Source: Deltaproteobacteria bacterium (GTDB lineage Bacteria; Myxococcota_A; Polyangia; Polyangiales; Houyiibacteriaceae). Taken from it: DNA of 64,000 bases. The notes beneath the pieces are model-generated. The model made no database searches. It saw nothing but the letters and a program-made list of their open reading frames with translations, and had not been told where the DNA came from. The translations under genes and the position numbers were made by a program. Below, piece after piece: positions 8,087-16,903 of the stretch. The first letter of the stretch is position 1; each line of letters starts with the position of its first letter. The DNA is taken from the NCBI GenBank assembly GCA_034670305.1, contig JAXMNT010000016.1, forward strand, positions 1-64,000. The letters run 5' to 3'.

Positions 8087-10372
8087 TCAGTCGGTGGCGC
8101 GCGGGACGATGATGACGACCTGTTTCTCGTCGAGCACGGTGATGCCGTCGCCGATGACCTGGAGGGTCACGGTGAAGACCTGGTCCTCGTCGAGTTCGGC
8201 CACGGTGTCGTTGAACGCGATGATCGTGAAGCTCACGATCGTGCCTGGCGTGAGATCGACGAACGAGTCGAAGATGCTGTCGCCGTCGAGGTCGGCGACC
8301 GAGGGGGAAGGGGCACCCGGCGGCGGGGTCGCCGAACGAGGAATGGTCGCCTTGATGAAGTTGTTCGGATCTCCGACCACTCGGATGGAGACCGTGTCGA
8401 GACTGATCGAGGTGACGAGATCGTTGACCGCGTCCACCAATGTGTCTGCGAGACCGGAGCCGTTCTCGCGCGCGTCGAACACGAGCGGGCAGACTTCCGT
8501 CCCGTCGGCCAACATGTCCGGCGGCCGCGCCGAACCGGAGATCCCGGTGAAGCAGTCACCGCCGGTGGGCGGGATGTAGGTCTCGGTGTCGAGCGCGAGT
8601 TGCACGAGCTGCGCGCGCGCTTCGCTCCGACTCGCGACACCAATGAACCGCGCCGACAGAGCCCCGAACGCAGTCACGACGTCGTCGTGGTCGTGGGTCC
8701 CGGTGATGCCCATCGCTGCGTAATCCGCCGGGATGTGGCTCGTCGCGTCGGTGACGTGGATGACCATGGGGAACGCGTCGTCGCGGAATCCGACGCCGCC
8801 GCGCGTGCCCTCCGCGCCTGGCGTCGGGGTGAAGGGAGGTACGGCACCGCCGCGGAACGTGATGCCCTCCCCCGTCGCGATTTGGTAGAGCGCTTCGTAA
8901 CCGGATTCGGGAAGATCGGCGCCGCAGCCGAGCGGCATGTCGAGCACCCGGATGGCGCTGTCGACCCGACCGACCACCGTCGTGATGGGCTGAAGCAACT
9001 TGAACGGCTGGTCGGGATCGCCCGCCGCACCGCCGCAGTTCAGGTTGCCGAACGGGTTGATTGGGAAGTCTTCGTATTCGCTCACGCCGAACGCGGTGTC
9101 CGGAATGAACGCGCGGATGCCCGGAATCACCGAGGTCCGGATCGACGACTGGAGGTTGTTGATCTCGCCACTCATCGAGCCGGTGGTGTCCACGCTCACG
9201 TGGACATCCGCGCGCCGGATGTTGGTGTCGAAGGTGAGCGTGGCGGCCTTCTCGCCGCTGGGGTCGTCTTCCGGAAGGATGAAGAAGAACTCGGGGATCA
9301 TCGACGACGGGTCGCAGGGGTCGGTGCCCGCCGTGACCTCAGCCAGGTCCGTCTGGCCATCGCCATCGGTGTCCGGGTCGGTGGGATCCATACATCCCGA
9401 CTCGCCTTCGTCACGGTCGCTGACGCCATCCGCATCGGAGTCGAGGTCGCGGAAGTCCGGGATGCCGTCGCGGTCGGAGTCGACCGGCTGGGTGCCGGGG
9501 TCGCGGTCGCCCGCTTCGATGCGATCAGGGATGCCGTCGTCGTCGGAGTCGTTGTCGCGGAAGTCCGGGCGGCCGTCGCCGTCGGTGTCGATCCCCGACT
9601 CCGCGCCTTCGTCGATGTCCGCGATCGTGTCTCCGTCGGTGTCGGTGAGATCACGGATCGGAATGCAGCGCGACGTCCGGCAGACGCTGTCGCTCGGACA
9701 ACGCACCCCGCAGCCGCCGCAGTTGTCGTCGTTCATCTCGGTGTTGACGCAGGAGCTCGCGCAGTCGGTCGTGCCGCTCGGGCACTCGAGCACGCAGTCG
9801 CCCATCGAACAGCTTTCGTCGAGGCCGCAGAACCGCCCGCAGGATCCGCAGTTGCGGGGATCGACCGCGGTGTCCACGCAACTCTCGTCGCATCGATCGA
9901 GCGGCACGGGACAGGTGTCGGTGCAGCTGCCAGCGGAGCAGAATCCGGTGTCGCCGCAGGAGCGACCGCACGCACCGCAGTGAGACGGGCTCACGTCGAG
10001 GTCGACGCACACGTCGCCGCATACCTCGAGGGGGCAGGTGTCGGAGCAGCCGCCCGACGCACAGAACTGGCCAGGTCCACACGCGATGCCACAGCCCCCG
10101 CAGTGGTTGAGGTCCACGTCGAAGTCGACGCACTCGTCGCCGCACAACCCGAGCACGCCGGGGCACATCGGACCACCGTCGATCGGGCCGACGTCCGGTC
10201 GAGGCATCCCGGTATCCAAGCCCGGACCCACATCGATCCCAGGACCCGCGTCGAACCCACCACCATCGACCCCAGGACCGGTGTCGTCGCGTGAAAAGTC
10301 GTCGAGCCACCCCCGGCTGCCGCAGCCCACGGAGAGAAAAGTCAAAGCTGCCAACAAGAGGGAGACGCGCAT
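8087..10372 (-). CDS. Secreted/lipoprotein with Cys-rich repeats, DxDxDG Ca-binding repeats and a VWA-like domain (CglD-like architecture)
   Basis: Lipobox-like LSVGC; repeats CVDxxxxxxHCGxCGxxC; DTDGD/DSDDDG/DSDRDG repeats; VDTTGSMSGE (MIDAS-like) and PESGYEALYQ. Confidence 0.8.
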   Translation of the reverse strand: MRVSLLLAALTFLSVGCGSRGWLDDFSRDDTGPGVDGGGFDAGPGIDVGPGLDTGMPRPDVGPIDGGPMCPGVLGLCGDECVDFDVDLNHCGGCGIACGPGQFCASGGCSDTCPLEVCGDVCVDLDVSPSHCGACGRSCGDTGFCSAGSCTDTCPVPLDRCDESCVDTAVDPRNCGSCGRFCGLDESCSMGDCVLECPSGTTDCASSCVNTEMNDDNCGGCGVRCPSDSVCRTSRCIPIRDLTDTDGDTIADIDEGAESGIDTDGDGRPDFRDNDSDDDGIPDRIEAGDRDPGTQPVDSDRDGIPDFRDLDSDADGVSDRDEGESGCMDPTDPDTDGDGQTDLAEVTAGTDPCDPSSMIPEFFFILPEDDPSGEKAATLTFDTNIRRADVHVSVDTTGSMSGEINNLQSSIRTSVIPGIRAFIPDTAFGVSEYEDFPINPFGNLNCGGAAGDPDQPFKLLQPITTVVGRVDSAIRVLDMPLGCGADLPESGYEALYQIATGEGITFRGGAVPPFTPTPGAEGTRGGVGFRDDAFPMVIHVTDATSHIPADYAAMGITGTHDHDDVVTAFGALSARFIGVASRSEARAQLVQLALDTETYIPPTGGDCFTGISGSARPPDMLADGTEVCPLVFDARENGSGLADTLVDAVNDLVTSISLDTVSIRVVGDPNNFIKATIPRSATPPPGAPSPSVADLDGDSIFDSFVDLTPGTIVSFTIIAFNDTVAELDEDQVFTVTLQVIGDGITVLDEKQVVIIVPRATD

Positions 10373-10491
10373 GCCCGCAAAGTACGCCACTCCGCAGCCA
10401 GGGACCAGTCGGGTCCCCATGAATCCGGCACGTTCTGACCCGGCGGGGCACCGAACTCGACCGCACACTCACCATCCGGCCGAGCCAAGTT

Positions 10492-10527
10492 AAAAACAAA
10501 ACGCCTCGAGCAAGCTCGAGGCGTTTT
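10492..10527 (-). terminator. Rho-independent terminator ending a minus-strand transcript
   Basis: Minus strand reads CGCCUCGAG-CUUG-CUCGAGGCG followed by UUUUGUUUUU; perfect inverted repeat at 10498-10527. Confidence 0.88.
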
Positions 10528-13280
10528 GGAAGGTCGACTTTCATCACCGAATCTCGGTCTCCGAAGAGCCTCGATTCCTTCGCGGTCGTTTCGAACACTG
10601 GCCTAGCGTTCCCGACTCCCACGAACCGCCGATGGGCGGGCGACGACGTGGTCTCGCTCATGACACGAGACCCACACACGTCTTTGGGTAGGTTTGAACC
10701 GCCTCGGGCACTCCGAAGAGTGCTTCGAGGGCCCGACGACTCCGAAGAGCTGCCGGGTCATGGGTGGCGTAATTGCCTCCCATGCAACGTTCCATCGCGA
10801 TTCATCCGAGGATGAATTCACGAGCTTCGACCGACGTGTGTGATGCACCCGTCTGGCGACGGGCCGTGCGCTGTTGCGCACTGTGCTGACATACCGTGTT
10901 CCTTCTCGGGTTCCGAAGAATCCGCGAGTCGAGCGGGCACTCGAACCCTTGGTGCGAACCAAAAGTCGAATGTCGCTCGGTATGCCCGTATCCGCTTTCG
11001 CGGTTCCGCGTCATTGGGAGCCACCCTCTGCGTGCTGAACGGCCTGTTTTAGGTTCCGCGCGATGCCCTTGCCTCGTTGGTCCGAAGACCGCCGTTGACT
11101 CGTGCACCCCGTCCCTCTCGGGATTCTCACTGGGAGAGCTTGTGTCACTCACATATCGATGTCTGATGTCTTGGTCGTCGAACTGGCACCTGCACGTTGG
11201 TTCCACGGCCGGTTTCGACTCTCGTCGCCCTCGACCCCTCCGTACCTGTCTCGTCTTCTTCACCCGACCCTTTGCTCCGAGGAGCACTGGACTCGAGGAG
11301 TGGAAGCACCCGCTCGACCAAGAACCACCCGTTCGCCACCGAAGTGACGTGCCGTTTGGTCCCGACATCTCTCGTCGTCTTCTGGTCCGCGCGAAGCCAA
11401 GCTCCGCCCACACTCGATGTTCACCGAACCATCGCGCGATGCGCGCGGTTCGAGTGCCCTCTTCGGTTCACGCTGGGTAACCAGTCGCTCTCCGAGGAGT
11501 TGTCCCACCGCACGAATGCTGGGGACTGCACGCGATGTTCCTGAGCCCAAGTTGGACAAGCCAACTCGAGCGAGAAACTGCTGAATCATCGCCACACCCA
11601 TTTCACTTCGAAATGCCTGGTCCTTGCGCTGCCCGAAGACTGCGCCCGGTTTTCTCCATTCATTTCGCCCCTCCTCTCAAACCCGTTGCCGGGTCTGGAC
11701 GAACTTCCGAAGAAGCACGTTCCCATTGCTGGCCAAGTGACTTCCGGAGAAGTCCCATGGTGGCGCAGGGTTGGCGTTCCATTCGAGCTCGGCGAACCGA
11801 GGAACGAACTTCTTGCCTGGGGCACCGACTCCATCGCGCCGCGGTCTCTCGACCGGCAGCCCAGACGCAGAACGTCTGGTCGAGCGCTGGCGAACCAGCA
11901 CTGCTGTTCTCTCTCGAGAGCGATGGGCACTCGCTTTCACGAACACCTCTGAGTCGACTTGTTCTCTCGTGACGCCGTGTGATTCCCCGTCCGTCGCGAA
12001 TGTCCAAAGACGTTCGCGGCCGAACCCGAAACCTGCACGACCTTCGTTGGCCTTCCCCCGATCGGCTCCTCGCCGGACCGTGTTTCCACGTTCCCGCGCA
12101 AGCTTCTCGCTGCGCACGCGAGACCCGAAGATCTCCGTGCTCCCTCCCTTCGACTCTCTCGAGCCGTCTTTCGAAACGGAAGAGGGTTGGTCCTGAACCC
12201 GCCCGAGCTCGGTCTTGCGACCGGTTCGTTCGTTGGTGCGAAGCACCTGGTTCAACCGAAGTCACACGCGTTGCCGCGTGTCCTGTCCAATCCACGTTGG
12301 CTCTCGCCAAACCTCACCGACGAATCGGCGTGGCTGCCCGAGGGTGCTCCCCCCGGTTGCCCAAACACGTTGCCGCGCTTGGGTCGTGGCTCTCGAAACG
12401 GTGCACGAATGCACCGCCTCGACGAGATCTGGATGCGTCGAATCGACGATTTGCAACCTACCTATTTGTTTTTCAAAGACGCACACCCGCGTTTCGATGC
12501 GGTGTTCTTTCTCGCCGTCCTGCGCGAACGCCGAGGAGCCGAAGCGCGACACCTCGCGCTGACCCGTGTTGGTCGTCCGTTCGCTCGTCCAGCCCGTTGT
12601 CGGGGCCTCGTGAGCGGGGAGACCAACCTTCTTCGTCATTCGCGGTCTCGTGAGCTGGATTTCTCAGCTCGGACACCGGCGAATCGAGATGTTCGGTGCG
12701 TGCGACACGTCCCGGACCGAAGTCGCGAGAGGGTGTGTGCCGACACGTCGTTTCACCCGAAGAAGTCTCTCTTCGAAGTCTTGCACGCGGCCTTTTGAAC
12801 CGGTGAAGCCTCGATTTCGATGTGCAAAGAACACTGCCGCGAGCATTTTCGCGAACTCAGCCCCGACTTGCGTCGGTGGGTGCGAACCCAGCCGAACCAC
12901 CTTCCCCGAGGAGCTTCCTCCCACCCTGGGTTGCCCCATGGTGCGTCCGTCCAACGAGTTGAACGAAGCGGACGCTGCCCCCGAATCCGAATGATTCGCC
13001 ATCCAGTGCTCCCTCCCGAAGAAGGGCTCCCTTCCGAAGAAGCGAGGTCGTCTCGTGGACATCGCTCGACTGGCGCCGATCGACCTCCGCGAAACCAAGG
13101 ATTGGCAAGCCAATCCGCTGAATGGTTCCAGCAAGACCCGTGTCCCCCTCCTTGCGGAGCGGACCACTGGCGGTGACGCGAACGTCATCGCACTCGACCT
13201 TCCTCGACCGAAGTCTCGGTTGGCCGTGCCCCCTGCCTTCTGCGGCTCAGAAACTCGCGGTGTGTGTCCCGCGACCTTCG
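10492..13280 (-). ncRNA. Candidate very large (~2.8 kb) structured non-coding RNA of unknown class
   Basis: No credible CDS; dense minus-strand hairpins with UUCG/GNRA/CUUG loops (e.g. 10708-10723, 11079-11090, 11681-11694, 11788-11801, 11842-11855, 12210-12223, 12265-12280, 12399-12416, 12863-12876, 13148-13159); long-range complementarity between 13194-13203 and 10528-10537; promoter at one end, terminator at the other. 5' boundary is estimated. Confidence 0.75.
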
Positions 13281-13286
13281 AGAGTG

Positions 13287-13345
13287 TTTCTATCCGATGG
13301 CCCAACTCATTGCAAGAAGAAAAGGCAGGTCAATGCACTTTTTTT
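13287..13345 (-). promoter_or_regulatory. Sigma70-like promoter region driving the candidate RNA
   Basis: Minus strand: A-tract (AAAAAAAGTGCA), then TTGACC (13333-13328); alternatively TTGCAA (13315-13310)-17 bp-TAGAAA (13292-13287). AT-rich island in a GC-rich genome. Confidence 0.55.
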
Positions 13346-13390
13346 ATCCACAACACGCCGCGGAGCCATTCCCAAGTTTTCCACAACACG
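13344..13390. promoter_or_regulatory. Two DnaA boxes within a 14-bp direct repeat
   Basis: TTATCCACA (13344-13352, perfect) and TTTTCCACA (13377-13385, one mismatch), each followed by ACACG; 33-bp period. Confidence 0.65.
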
Positions 13391-13567
13391 TCGCGCAACG
13401 CTGTTTTTACGGGGCTTTTGGGATCGCCCCTCCCGACCGACCCGCCATTCAAACGTTTGATTACCGGAAAGAATCTTGTTTGTATCTACGCAATCTATGC
13501 GCACTGATAACTTCCGGCACCGCACACCCGTTTCTTGACCACGGGCTCGAAACCGTTGAGAAATCTG

Positions 13568-14125
13568 GTGGTGCCCCAAGCGCTTCAAACCTGGTTCCCG
13601 TGGGCCCTGGCCGGGACCTTGCTCGCCCTCCTACTGGGCCAGGTGGGCCGGCTCAGACGTCTCCGGAGCCAGCCGAAGCGCCGGATGGAACGGGCCAGGA
13701 TCCAAGGCGCGGCCGGGGAGGCCCGCGCACCTCAAATCCTTCGAGAAGCGGGGTACCGGGTGATCGCCCACCAACCCGAGGCCATGCACCCGCTGCGCAT
13801 CGACGGCTCCACAGTGACGTTCCCCGTACGCGCGGACTTTCTCGTGGCCCGCGGCGGGCAGCGTTTTGTCGCGGACGCAAAGACCGGCGCCTCGGCGCGC
13901 CTGAGCCACCGCGGCACCCGCCGGCAGCTGCTGGAGTACGCGCTCGCGTACGAGGTCCATGGCGTACTCCTCGTCGACGCCGACGCCGGGACCGTGTCAC
14001 GCCTCGAGCTTCCGCCCCGCCGCGTGCACTGGCCAGTCCTGGTCGCCGCGCTGCTGGTCGGCGCCGCGCTCGGCGGCTGGGTCCACGCCCGATGGATCAC
14101 CCCACCCAGCGCCCAAGCCGACTGA
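13568..14125 (+). CDS. Membrane-anchored PD-(D/E)XK nuclease-like protein
   Basis: Hydrophobic N- and C-terminal segments; core GEARA..L...GY, RADFLV, ADAKTG, RRQLLEY fits a restriction-endonuclease-like fold. Confidence 0.65.
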   Translation: MVPQALQTWFPWALAGTLLALLLGQVGRLRRLRSQPKRRMERARIQGAAGEARAPQILREAGYRVIAHQPEAMHPLRIDGSTVTFPVRADFLVARGGQRFVADAKTGASARLSHRGTRRQLLEYALAYEVHGVLLVDADAGTVSRLELPPRRVHWPVLVAALLVGAALGGWVHARWITPPSAQAD

Positions 14126-14163: not shown

Positions 14164-15534
14164 CTAACCGAACACGGTGAGCAGCGTCGGCACCACGATG
14201 CCGATGACCAGAAACGCGATGGCGGTGTATCCCACGATGTCCTTCGCCTCGAGCCGCATGATGCCGAGCAATGGGAGGGCCCAGAACGGCTGGAGCATGT
14301 TCGTCCAGGCGTCTCCGTAGCTGAACGCCATCACCGCGGTCGCGGGGTCGACGCCCAGATCGTGGGCGGCGGTCATGAGCACCTCGCCCTGCACCGCCCA
14401 CTGGCCCCCACCGGAGGGCACGAAGAGGTTCACGACACCGGCCGAGAGAAACGCGAGCGCGGGGAACGAGGTCTGAGTCGCGATGGAGACCAGGCCGTCG
14501 CTGAGCCACGCGATCATGCCGGCGGCTTTCATCACGCCAAGGATCCCAAAGTAGAACGGGAACTGCAGCACGATGCCGCCCGCGCCCTTGGCGCCGTCCG
14601 TGACCGCCTTGGCGTACGCGACGACCGACCCCTGCAGGCTCAAGCCGATGAAGAGAAACAGGAGGTTCACCAGATCGAGGTCGAGGCTCAGCGGTCCGAA
14701 CATCCATGCGTCGAAGACGAACAGGAACCCGGTGAGCCCGAAGACGCCGCCGACCCACTTCGAGTGCTGGAGCCAACCAACGACGCCGGAACCCTGCGCG
14801 CGGTCAGGCGCAACCTCCTTCGGGACATCGACGGGTTCTTCGGAGAGTGGAATCAGCTGCGCTGGGTCGCTCGGGGTCAGCACATAGAACAGCACCGGCA
14901 ACAGCAGGACGAGCGTGCCGGTCACGATGAGGTTGAGTGGAGAGAACAGCGTCTCCGAGACGGGCAAGACGCCCGTCAGCGCCTCGACGAAGTGACCCTG
15001 CTCCGCGACCTTCAAAGGCGCCGATCCACTGAACCCGCCGTGCCAGACCGCGAAGCCCGAGTACGCGGCGGCTCCGAGCAGCGGGTAGTGCACCGGCCTG
15101 CCGACCCGCTTCGCGTACCGTCCCATCTCCCGGGCCAGAAACGCGCCAACGATCGCCCCGAGCCCCCAGTGCGCGACGGCACTCAAACAGGAGACGAAGG
15201 CCACCAGCGCCGAGGCACTGGCGGCGGTCGGTGCGCGGCGCGAGAACCAGACGACAACACGCTGCACGGGCGGAGACGTGGCGAGCGCGTGTCCCGTGAC
15301 CAGCACGAGACACATCTGGAGCGCGAACGCCAAGAGCGGTCGACTGGAGAAACCCTCGACCCAGCCCGGCACCAACACCGCCGGGCTCCCGCCCGTCGCC
15401 AGAAGTCGCCAGGCACCCAGCGCGAACACGACAACCGTCAGCAAGAGCGCGAGCAGAAACGGCTCCGGAACCCAGCGTCGTGCACCTCGGGCGAACCGAT
15501 CCCCGAGTCGCGTGACGAGGCTGGTCCCGCTCAC
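14164..15534 (-). CDS. atoE: Short-chain fatty acid transporter (AtoE/TIGR00366 family)
   Basis: LAFALQMCLVLVTGHALA, YPLLGAAAYSG, QFPFYFGI, NLFVPSGGGQWAVQG, GDAWTNMLQPFWALPLL. Confidence 0.88.
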   Translation of the reverse strand: MSGTSLVTRLGDRFARGARRWVPEPFLLALLLTVVVFALGAWRLLATGGSPAVLVPGWVEGFSSRPLLAFALQMCLVLVTGHALATSPPVQRVVVWFSRRAPTAASASALVAFVSCLSAVAHWGLGAIVGAFLAREMGRYAKRVGRPVHYPLLGAAAYSGFAVWHGGFSGSAPLKVAEQGHFVEALTGVLPVSETLFSPLNLIVTGTLVLLLPVLFYVLTPSDPAQLIPLSEEPVDVPKEVAPDRAQGSGVVGWLQHSKWVGGVFGLTGFLFVFDAWMFGPLSLDLDLVNLLFLFIGLSLQGSVVAYAKAVTDGAKGAGGIVLQFPFYFGILGVMKAAGMIAWLSDGLVSIATQTSFPALAFLSAGVVNLFVPSGGGQWAVQGEVLMTAAHDLGVDPATAVMAFSYGDAWTNMLQPFWALPLLGIMRLEAKDIVGYTAIAFLVIGIVVPTLLTVFG

Positions 15535-15535
15535 G

Positions 15536-16903
15536 TCAGTGCCCGCGCTTGTCGAGCGCCCGATGGATCTCACCGAGCACCGTGTCCGGGTCGCTCCCCA
15601 TCTCGAATGGCACGTTCGCGTAGGTCGAGTCGAACTCGAGCGCCTGTCGGTGGTAGGCCGACTTGAACTCGGTGAACTTCAACCCGTGGGCGGTCGAGAC
15701 GACCACCACCCGCTCGTGGCGCTGGATGGTCTTGGCTGCGACGAGCTTCTCGAGGCACGCGAGCGCGACGCCGGTGTGGGGACAGTTGAACATGCCGGTG
15801 CGGTCGGCGCGGGCGACCGCGTCGGCGAGCTCGGGCTCGGTGGCCTGTTCGACGATGCCGCGGCACGCGACGAGGGCCCGCACCGCTTTGGGGAGCGACA
15901 CCGGGTTGCCGATGCGGATGGCCGACGCGAGGGTCTCGCCCGCTTCCATCGGCTCGAAGTCAGCTTCGGTGAGATCGCGGTTCTCCGCTTCGGCGCGCTT
16001 GTACGCGAGGTAGAGCGGGTTGGCCTTGGCGGCCTGGCAGCAGACCAGGCGCGGGAGTTTGGCGATGATGCCGAGCTCCTTCATCTCGAGGAAGCCTTTG
16101 GCGATCGCGGACACGTTGCCGAGGTTGCCGCCGGGCACGAGCACCCAGTCGGGCACCTCCCAGTCGAACTGCTGCACCATCTCGAGCGAGATGGTCTTCT
16201 GACCTTCGACCCGCAGCGAGTTCATGGAGTTGGCCAGGTAGATCGACCGGTCTTCGGTGAGCCGCTGCACCACCCGCATGCATCCGTCGAAGTCGGTGTC
16301 GAGCGCGCACACGAGCGCGCCATTGGCCATCGGCTGGACGAGCTGGGCGGCGGTGATCTTGCCCTTTGGAAGCAACACGACCACCGGGATGTTCGCCGCC
16401 GCACCATAGGCGGCGAGCGCCGCGCTCGTGTCTCCGGTCGACGCGCACGCGACCGCGCGGATGGGTTGGCCCTCCGAGATCATCTGCTTCACCGACGAGA
16501 CGAGCACCGTCATGCCGAGGTCCTTGAAGCTGCCGGTGTGGCTCGTGCCACACTGCTTGACCCACAGGTCGTCGAGACCGACGTGTTCCTTGCCGTAGCG
16601 CTCCGCCCAGAAGAGGTTGGTGTTGCCCTCGTAGAGGGAGACCACGTTCTCGGGCGCGACGTGCGGCTGGACCCACTCGTGTTTGCTCCAGACCCCACTG
16701 CCGTAGGGCCAGCGGGTGCGGCCGTAGCGTTCGTCGAAGACCCGCATCCACCCGGCGGCGCTCCGCTGCTTGAGCGCGTCGAGATCGTGCACGACCTCGA
16801 GCAACGAGCCCGTGGTGGGGCATCGGTAGATGACTTCGTTGAGCGGATGCCGGGCGTCGCCCGCGTCCGCCGACACACTCTGGAACCAGGCACGCGGCTG
16901 CAT
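15536..16903 (-). CDS. thrC: Threonine synthase
   Basis: [17 protein letters not shown] (PLP Lys), [42 protein letters not shown]. Confidence 0.95.

Follow-up and report, generated by a model that had tools for sequence, protein, structure and literature searches.

To our knowledge, bacterial non-coding RNAs that exceed about 0.5 kb are few, and each of them opened new biology or a new RNA architecture. The closest described examples, OLE, GOLLD and ROOL, are several times shorter than the 0.6-3.7 kb Polyangiales RNA considered here. A second point of reference is the rRNA operon, whose leader and trailer pair into a processing stem; the cut of RNase III has an offset of 2 nt. In the window (the whole 64 kb stretch of DNA that was analyzed), a gene-free stretch of 2.8 kb very likely corresponds to a single large and extensively folded non-coding RNA, a member of an undescribed family from the order Polyangiales (Myxococcota). 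Its primary transcript is placed on the minus strand at 10490-13279, a span that runs from the predicted start to the terminator U-tract. Codon periodicity is absent over about 10200-13500, and likewise in the matching stretch of 21 related loci. None of the six longest open reading frames reaches the curated cut-off of a Pfam family (five without any match, one with a sub-cut-off match of 17.1 bits against 27), and a protein-coding gene was rejected on these two grounds. The minus strand carries 16 copies of CUUCGG compared with one on the plus strand, GNRA words are two- to three-fold commoner on it, and fold z-scores for the RNA strand are -3.7, -5.3 and -3.8.

At the gathering score, the Rfam 15 families covered (among them RNase P, 6S, tmRNA, OLE, GOLLD, ROOL, HEARO, group I and II introns and rRNA) gave no match in the window or in five homologous loci, and in E-value mode the sole match was NEAT1_2, with E=5. 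An expanded RNase P RNA or 6S RNA was also considered and rejected, both being encoded elsewhere in the genome. No description of such an RNA was found in the accessible parts of the full-text literature and of one 2026 preprint. A plain DNA search of 41 relatives returned short matches only, and finding homologues required a model built on the promoter and leader. Matches to this model occur in 21 of the 88 genomes of the family and in 34 of the 151 genomes of the order, with one copy per genome save for a single genome with two; outside the order, one of about 126 genomes in a phylum sample was matched. The non-coding RNA is single-copy and confined to one bacterial order. Since the model used to collect homologues itself includes the promoter boxes and the leader, how often these features recur is in part a circular measure. 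RNA length varies by genus from 0.6 to 3.7 kb, and most of the 3' 1.9 kb has no sequence similarity to other genera.

A conserved sigma-70-like promoter, with two DnaA-box-like motifs ahead of it, is proposed to drive minus-strand transcription. The putative core promoter (13287-13315) combines a -35 element TTGCAA (13315-13310), a 17-nt spacer and a -10 element TAGAAA (13292-13287), which fall in conserved columns of alignments A2 and A3, and a start near 13279-13281 is predicted from it; a generic sigma-70 promoter scan of the locus made no call. Motif 1 (TGTGGAAAA on the RNA strand, 13377-13385) includes a TGTGGA core that is invariant in the five-genome alignment A2 and present in nearly all of 43 loci. 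Motif 2 (13344-13352), a perfect TGTGGATAA followed by an A-tract, is conserved in position in alignments A2, A3 and A5 and is the sole perfect TTATCCACA in the 7.9 Mb assembly. DnaA-box-like motifs within one mismatch were found at 40 of the 43 loci, and expression may be tied to DnaA, judging from these motifs. Transcription starting at about 13279 would stop at an intrinsic terminator at 10528-10497, detected by a terminator search, where a G+C-rich hairpin (14-bp stem, 4-nt loop) is followed by a U-tract; a relative of 95.7% identity keeps the stem through a compensatory change, C10521>G together with G10504>C. Analogous terminators are present in homologues, and the locus has one conserved promoter and one terminator only.

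It was proposed in the initial annotation that nested long-range helices close the whole RNA into one domain, the outermost being formed by 13194-13203 with 10528-10537, and all four of the complementarities on which this proposal was built are present. The terminal stem survives in part: its 3' arm (10528-10537), directly before the terminator and carrying the motif GYGACYUUC conserved across genera, is real and co-varies, but its partner in relatives is the leader (13279-13272), about 75 nt upstream of 13203-13194. Position 10528, with which the terminator stem begins, also belongs to this arm. In the resulting terminal helix, P1, the start of the invariant leader (GAAGGUCG, 13272-13279) would pair with the 8-10 nt that lead up to the terminator, across about 2.75 kb; in this genome P1 has 8 bp and its 3' side is 10529-10536. 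Homologous arms co-vary in other genera, giving the compensatory forms GAAGGUCGC/GUGACCUUC, GAAGCUCGC/GCGAGCUUC and GAAGUUCGCG/CGUGAACUUC as well as GAAAGGUCGC/GCGACCUUUC, a matched insertion, and the pair that precedes GAAG varies between C-G, G-C and U-A. A leader match of at least 9 bp adjoins the terminator in 13 of 41 loci, compared with 12 of 410 shuffled arms, and one of at least 7 bp in 23 of 41 compared with 70 of 410. The automatic rule missed P1 in the other 18 loci, at least four of which are cut by contig ends, while G012 and G047 form P1 only with an internal defect. Single-sequence minimum free energy (MFE) folding forms P1 in 10 of 15 homologues and pairs the 3' arm elsewhere in the remaining five, and P1 also appears in the consensus fold of three short forms of 0.6-0.7 kb.

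A rather unlikely alternative, though one with evidence of its own, is that the true terminal helix in this genome is 13203-13194 with 10528-10537, either through a shift of about 75 nt or as a second, alternating conformation. The 5' arm in question (GGAAGGUCGA, 13194-13203) is the exact reverse complement of 10528-10537, so that it offers a perfect 10 bp compared with the 8 bp of the leader helix. The 10 nt before the terminator found a perfect complement within the first 320 nt in none of 300 dinucleotide shuffles, and anywhere upstream in two of 300. The whole-length partition function places the 3' arm on this site with a probability of about 0.97, leaving 0.02 for P1, and the same helix is in the MFE structure; three homologues have MFE structures in which the partner of the 3' arm lies 32-48 nt from the 5' end. 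However, the four other genomes of alignment A1 do not conserve 13194-13203. The leader arm, by contrast, is invariant and shows covariation with the 3' arm across the family; the leader is also the partner in the 10 of 15 homologues mentioned above, each folded singly, and in every case of covariation. Energy models are also unreliable for RNAs of 2.8 kb, and the 8+8 helix described below, proven by covariation, was scored at about 0. The 95.7% identical relative does not include the 5' region that holds 13194-13203. On the folding models, the 13203-13194 helix may be a lineage-specific alternative to P1.

Among the inner helices, the nested 8+8 helix (12455-12481 with 10679-10694) was borne out by compensatory changes across genera. 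Inside P1, its 5' side, formed by CGUCUUUG, an 11-nt A-rich bulge and GGUAGGUU (12455-12481), is the most conserved block of the RNA and would pair with a contiguous 16-mer 1.8 kb downstream (AACCUACC-CAAAGACG, 10679-10694), which makes 8+8 bp with 12474-12481 and 12455-12462 around the bulge. The real RNA has a single 8+8 Watson-Crick bipartite helix, and 6 of 120 shuffles contain one or more. Compensatory variants of the 3' side occur in other genera, where the helix recurs with at least six sets of compensatory changes; right-arm pairs include GGUAGGUU/AACCUACC, GGUAGGCU/AGCCUACC, GAUAGGUCG/UGACCUAUC, UCUGGAUU/AAUCCAGA, UGUGGGCU/AGCCCACA, UGCGGGUU/AACCCGCA and UCGUGGGUU/AACCCACGA. An automated search gave false matches outside the RNA in several loci, and bipartite helices were counted only where they lay 50-210 nt before the 3' arm. 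When 12 sequences from a single related genus were folded with RNAalifold, the helix was recovered in part only, because the arms are invariant within that genus and many rows lack ends. Another nested helix, 13266-13260 with 10673-10679, is a candidate: short forms show a compensatory change in it, but two contigs from another genus carry a G>A without compensation. From covariation across genera, P1 and the bipartite helix are real, and together they are proposed as the core common to all members of the family, around which lineage-specific, hairpin-rich expansions (UUCG and GNRA loops) would lengthen the RNA from about 0.6 kb to 3.7 kb.

The two other inner helices did not hold. The first, 10579-10585 with 13087-13093, has 7 bp, and the second, 10593-10601 with 13003-13011, has 9 bp including one G-U. 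With at most one G-U allowed, 15 helices of at least 7 bp connect the first 320 nt of the real sequence with its last 173 nt, compared with 12.3 +/- 3.7 in shuffled ones (n=300), of which 28% reach 15, and these two are therefore what chance would be expected to give. They are out-competed by local hairpins, and each of the four arms is placed in a local helix with a probability of about 1: the 5' arms 13087-13093 and 13003-13011 pair with 13052-13058 and 13162-13170, and the 3' arms (10579-10601) lie inside a self-contained 3' domain in which 10579-10585 pairs with 10619-10625 and 10593-10599 with 10605-10611. In the 95.7% identical relative, G10583>A improves the local pair. The same substitution would break the 7-bp helix unless its 5' arm, unseen in that relative, had changed as well. 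Of the helices first proposed, the partition function of this genome retained only the one at 13203-13194 and gave about 0 to the 7-bp, 9-bp and 8+8 helices, while compensatory changes in homologues favor the leader/3'-end and 8+8 helices, and the 13194-13203 site is not conserved. The broader idea that this is one folded molecule rather than scattered hairpins fared well, supported by covariation in two helices and by single RNA contigs that span the whole region.

These metatranscriptome contigs, of 2667 and 2726 nt, come from two RNA runs and cover 10635-13270 and 10533-13270, except for 11955-12071 and replaced segments of the window, with bare flanks; one of them has adapter sequence at both ends. 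Cover of 10533-13270 comes from a roughly 90% identical relative, and the RNA evidence as a whole consists of assembled contigs of relatives (about 90% identical or of another genus), from which neither level nor strand can be read. Bins 10200-10433 have no RNA contig cover, and runs X17 and X18 hold short fragments only. The contigs lack the terminator, and the one that ends at 10533 does so inside the 3' arm. The ends at 13270 and 10533 have matching places in ten contigs of a related genus, with library end loss possible: in a g14-type relative from a metagenome collection, six contigs begin at (G)CGGAAC just after GAAGGUC and four finish at ...GUGAC, and DNA contigs continue beyond both points. 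Ends had been anticipated near 13203 and 10528; the contigs move the 5' end to about 13270-13279, and a 3' end at about 10533 agrees with 10528. Relative to P1, RNA contigs begin 8-9 nt inside the 5' arm and break off 5 nt inside the 3' arm; trimming after a staggered cut through both strands would give such ends, and so would the loss of terminal nucleotides in the library where P1 is intact. Leader/trailer complementarity of the kind seen in rRNA processing stems is kept here by compensatory change and exceeds the shuffled-arm control, and P1, stacked on the terminator hairpin, would most likely serve as a leader/trailer processing stem.

Other readings of the locus are far less probable. 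It is highly unlikely that the cysteine-rich protein gene at 8087-10468 has the stretch as its attenuator or as a 5' untranslated leader of very great length: this gene lies on the same strand, with about 30 nt between the terminator and the open reading frame, and follows the RNA in four other genomes, but downstream genes vary in most loci (dprA, topA, trmFO and others), at odds with a cis-regulatory leader, a strong terminator with a compensatory change stands between the two, and RNA contigs end at 10533 with the 10200-10433 bins uncovered. Its product is MXAN_6577-like; another flanking protein has 196 aa and weakly resembles a PD-(D/E)XK nuclease, and the upstream one is conserved, of 650-770 aa and without a family. 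The flanking proteins examined give no hint of RNA function. Very little also speaks for a DNA element, either a replication origin or a DnaA-titrating site with a spacer that is hairpin-rich by chance. The pair of DnaA-box-like motifs, which includes the assembly's sole perfect box, and their conservation among loci would suit it, but there are only two or three boxes, all at one end of the locus, and no cluster of at least three per 600 bp exists anywhere in the assembly. The dnaA gene is on another contig, and in three genomes it lies 4.8 Mb (of 9.07 Mb), 715 kb and 18 kb from the locus; oriC was rejected on box number, the lack of clusters and this variable distance. The G-U pairs, tetraloop bias and covariation are moreover specific to one strand, and the stretch is found as RNA in RNA-run contigs. 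Finally, several unrelated short RNAs or stand-alone hairpins with coincidental long-range matches are scarcely plausible, for although matches of 7-9 bp occur at chance frequency and the 3' 1.9 kb is mostly dissimilar to other genera, two co-varying helices span 1.3-2.7 kb, single RNA-run contigs bridge the whole region, and promoter and terminator are each single.

The preferred reading, one large folded RNA, suggests a stable and abundant molecule that probably acts as a scaffold or ribonucleoprotein core, in which the A-rich bulge of the bipartite helix is a candidate functional site. A more specific and still tentative proposal, to which we give somewhat less than an even chance, is a new class of giant structured RNA that is made as a precursor and matured via an rRNA-like leader/trailer stem, has a small universal core of terminal and bipartite helix that bears kilobases of helices specific to each lineage, and is wired to DnaA. 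If so, Polyangiales, an order of myxobacteria with large genomes and complex behavior, could have an RNA scaffold or RNA-protein machine of their own that is linked to growth state, and the promoter motif suggests an unexpected link to DnaA. We know of no larger structured non-coding RNA in bacteria outside the ribosome. Clear covariation and discrete ends in environmental RNA data suit the family for follow-up, the roughly six-fold size range around a common core offers natural minimal versions (about 0.6 kb) for structure work, and the long-range architecture is directly testable now that real and unreal helices have been named.

Compared with known systems, the locus resembles the rRNA operon in that the flanks of a kilobase-sized structured RNA pair together, the ends of RNA contigs lie within the stem on each strand and leave a 3' overhang, and the RNA lacks the terminator that follows. 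Unlike rRNA, it is single-copy and without an Rfam match, its stem is of 8-12 bp, though adjoining a terminator hairpin, and the offset in contigs of relatives is 3-4 nt compared with the 2 nt of RNase III. With RNase P RNA, 6S RNA and tmRNA it shares paired ends and a 3' terminator that appears to be trimmed off, but size and sequence are unrelated. Two or three matches to the DnaA-box consensus, taken here in its commonly known form, lie upstream of the core promoter as in DnaA-regulated promoters, in one orientation and conserved across families; the putative product differs, being a giant RNA and not a replication or nucleotide-metabolism gene. Like OLE, GOLLD and ROOL, the RNA is large, intricately folded, strand-specific, abundant in RNA data and tied to one taxon. 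It is set apart from them by the absence of a covariance-model match, by its host order, Polyangiales, by a length of 0.6-3.7 kb with big lineage-specific expansions around a small conserved core, and by a promoter that carries DnaA-box-like motifs.

The large structured non-coding RNA belongs to a new family from Polyangiales, in which two long-range helices, one of them joining both RNA ends, are shown by covariation between homologous sequences; its role is putatively that of a scaffold or ribonucleoprotein component. In the window, the RNA stretch is bordered by a minus-strand gene for a cysteine-rich protein (8087-10468) and by a plus-strand ORF of 196 aa (13535-14125) that diverges from the RNA promoter. 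Codon periodicity is absent from about 10200 to 13500, and five of the six longest ORFs of the stretch had no Pfam match, the sixth falling far below the cut-off. G+C content is 61% versus 68% for the window, the word CUUCGG occurs 16 times on the minus strand and once on the plus strand, and GNRA words are 2-3 fold more frequent on the minus strand. A 14-bp terminator hairpin followed by a U-tract (10528-10497, minus strand) forms the 3' end, and fold energy of the RNA strand in three 699-nt windows was 3.7-5.3 sd under that of shuffles. RNase P RNA and 6S RNA are both located elsewhere in the genome and are thus out, as is a dedicated leader of the downstream gene, since downstream genes vary among loci. 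Searches of the window and of five homologous loci against Rfam gave no match at gathering score, and one chance-level match (E=5) at permissive thresholds. Full-text literature searches, judged by titles and abstract openings, and a term search of one 2026 preprint turned up no account of such an RNA.

Plain DNA searches among relatives gave short hits only, but these were collinear, and in other genomes they head 0.65-3.9 kb stretches devoid of periodicity. The conserved blocks comprise the promoter and leader (13393-13225), 12926-12810 and 12595-12418; similarity of the 3' 1.9 kb to sequences of other genera was not found. A sequence model of the promoter and leader block, used to search for homologues, had matches in 21 of 88 genomes at family level and in 34 of 151 at order level (23 of 77 genera), and in 10 of 151 in a phylum-wide sample, where just one match, a weak one, lay outside the order. 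All genomes with a match carry a single copy except G036, which has two (C23:13746-13912 and C8:321992-322154), the C8 copy with its own terminal helix and terminator. One relative is a complete 9.07 Mb chromosome of Polyangiales. Counted from 5' arm to 3' arm, RNA length at homologous loci ranges from 596 to 3655 nt.

The initial annotation had proposed four nested helices closing the RNA into one domain, the outermost pairing 13194-13203 with 10528-10537, and all four complementarities are present in the window sequence. In relatives, a strong terminator is immediately preceded by 10-12 nt that can pair with the invariant leader, and the position equivalent to 13203-13194 is neither conserved nor the partner of the 3' arm. 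In these relatives the 3' arm pairs near the 5' end as proposed, but with the leader; the counterpart in the window is 13279-13272 with 10529-10536 (minus strand, 8 bp). Examples of the 5' and 3' arms are UCGAAGGUCGC/GUGACCUUCGA, UCGAAAGGUCGC/GCGACCUUUCGA (an additional A being answered by an additional U), UGGAAGGUCGC/GUGACUUUCCA, UUCGGAAGCU/AGCUUCCGAA, GAAGCUCGC/GCGAGCUUC, GAAGUUCGCG/CGUGAACUUC and UGAAGUU/GACUUCA. Terminator-adjacent matches of at least 9 bp were obtained at 13 of 41 loci with real leader arms versus 12 of 410 with shuffled arms, and of at least 7 bp at 23 of 41 versus 70 of 410; at least four of the loci without a match are cut by contig ends. The helix belongs to the single-sequence MFE structure of 10 of 15 homologues and is seen only with an internal defect in two genomes (G012 and G047). 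Covariation with the 3' arm requires that the leader arm be part of the transcript. The leader also has an alternative local hairpin (13250-13279, pairing with 13250-13260; ensemble p 0.7-1.0); the downstream strand of the hairpin, CUUUCG/UCUUCG, shows conservation and tracks the extra A of the leader in genome G004, which points to a conserved alternative pairing, perhaps a folding intermediate.

The bipartite 8+8 helix (12455-12481 with 10679-10694) is borne out by other genera, in which both arms change jointly, with the bulge remaining A-rich and the 3' strand contiguous. Right-arm variants are GGUAGGCU/AGCCUACC, GAUAGGUCG/UGACCUAUC, UCUGGAUU/AAUCCAGA, UGUGGGCU/AGCCCACA, UGCGGGUU/AACCCGCA and UCGUGGGUU/AACCCACGA; left-arm variants include CGUCUUUG/CGAAGACG, AUCUUUG/CGAAGAU and UCGUCUUUG/CAGAGGCGA. 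No block of the RNA is more conserved than the 5' side of this helix, whose 3' strand always lies 50-210 nt ahead of the terminal 3' arm. Singly and as a consensus, three naturally short members of the family (about 0.6-0.7 kb) adopt a fully closed fold that combines this bulged bipartite helix with the terminal helix and additional nested ones; compensatory change is seen in 49 of 221 consensus pairs. Given this covariation and these folds, nested long-range closure of one domain is right for the RNA family.

The two remaining helices of the initial annotation (13087-13093 with 10579-10585, 7 bp; 13003-13011 with 10593-10601, 9 bp) did not hold. The first 320 nt can form 15 helices of at least 7 bp with the last 173 nt, versus 12.3 +/- 3.7 in shuffles, 28% of 300 shuffles attaining 15, so both are unremarkable. 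The terminal 10-mer found a perfect complement inside the first 320 nt in 0 of 300 shuffles, and the 8+8 helix is the sole Watson-Crick bipartite helix of its kind in the RNA, 6 of 120 shuffles holding one. Whole-length partition-function folding of the window RNA placed the annotated terminal helix in the MFE structure with a probability of ~0.97, but gave ~0 for the 7-bp, 9-bp and 8+8 helices. Each arm of the 7-bp helix and of the 9-bp helix lies in a local minus-strand helix with p ~1 (13093-13087 with 13052-13058, 13011-13003 with 13162-13170, 10585-10579 with 10619-10625, and 10599-10593 with 10605-10611). In nine homologues, the 3' domains between bipartite helix and terminal arm are self-contained local folds, each closed by a stem preceding the terminal arm. 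In L096, a 95.7% identical relative lacking the 5' 600 nt, G10583>A turns the local G-U pair 10583-10621 into A-U and, barring a parallel change in the 5' arm outside this sequence, would disrupt the 7-bp helix; a compensatory pair is found in its terminator at 10521/10504. Altogether, the initial interpretation was correct in its general idea, with some of the details wrong.

Upstream of the leader, a conserved TTGCAA lies 17 nt before a conserved TAGAAA, and transcription would start ~7 nt past the latter, which fits the leader arm being transcribed. Two DnaA-box-like motifs (13344-13385), which match the DnaA-box consensus, lie upstream of this promoter; one of them, TTATCCACA, is a perfect box found nowhere else in the 7.9 Mb assembly. 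Among the 43 homologous loci, where the motifs all share one orientation, 24 have a perfect box, 40 at least one box within one mismatch and 31 at least two boxes, counts that are partly circular as the search model contains the boxes. From these motifs, the large RNA may have a link to DnaA. A replication origin was rejected by the tests run: the assembly contains no cluster of at least three boxes (one mismatch allowed) per 600 bp, and box clustering therefore fails to reveal the origin of this genome; its dnaA is on a different contig; and in three other genomes the distance from the locus to dnaA is 4.8 Mb, 715 kb and 18 kb.

Among the flanking genes, 8087-10468 encodes a 793-aa secreted-type, MXAN_6577-like protein with a Stig1 domain, which also follows the RNA in four other genera, with unusually high identity (63-78%). 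The 196-aa ORF keeps its position in nine related loci and has a weak, under-cut-off match to PD-(D/E)XK nucleases. In 14 of 22 related loci (e.g. L009:1203-3503 and L048:67-2016), the RNA is preceded by a same-strand gene for a conserved protein of ~650-770 aa that matches no Pfam or NCBIfam family; the gene ends ~30 nt before the boxes in a small-genome genus and up to ~1.7 kb away elsewhere. The window lacks it at this position; an ordinary short-chain fatty acid transporter gene occupies 14164-15573 (minus strand; Pfam SCFA_trans, E 2e-114).

Ten salt-marsh RNA runs contained 7-10% of sampled words, and four of them were mapped onto the window, with zero cover of 10200-10433 and 13359-13700. 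Two runs yielded contigs, 2667 nt (word depth 36) and 2726 nt (word depth 188) long, covering 10635-13270 and 10533-13270, from a relative with ~9% of letters differing and four segments (10706-10816, 11033-11097, 11437-11580 and 11949-12140) replaced by unrelated sequence of similar length; these segments are hot spots of helix turnover inside expansions. Adapter-like letters, presumably sequencing adapter, stand immediately outside both ends of the 2726-nt contig, and a second and a third run likewise stop at 13270 and 13268. As independent support, scanning a metagenome collection with the pattern of a conserved block (block C) retrieved 15 contigs, of which six begin at (G)CGGAAC, 8-9 nt inside the leader arm, and four finish at ...GUGAC, 5 nt inside the 3' arm; the DNA contigs L092 and L096 run on into the flanks. 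In L102, a metagenome contig of a related genus, the last ~230 nt are unlike other copies, perhaps because the assembly is chimeric or the 3' domain is a variant one. Transcript ends had been expected near 13203 and 10528; the 3' end at 10533 agrees, inside the 3' arm, but the 5' ends fall at 13268-13270. The contig ends from RNA runs and metagenomes argue for a discrete terminator-less species with both ends within the terminal helix. These ends could come from end loss in the libraries, with the terminal helix intact, or from a staggered cut in the terminal helix, which adjoins the terminator hairpin, so that the duplex would be longer; the model for such a cut is the staggered cleavage of rRNA processing stems.
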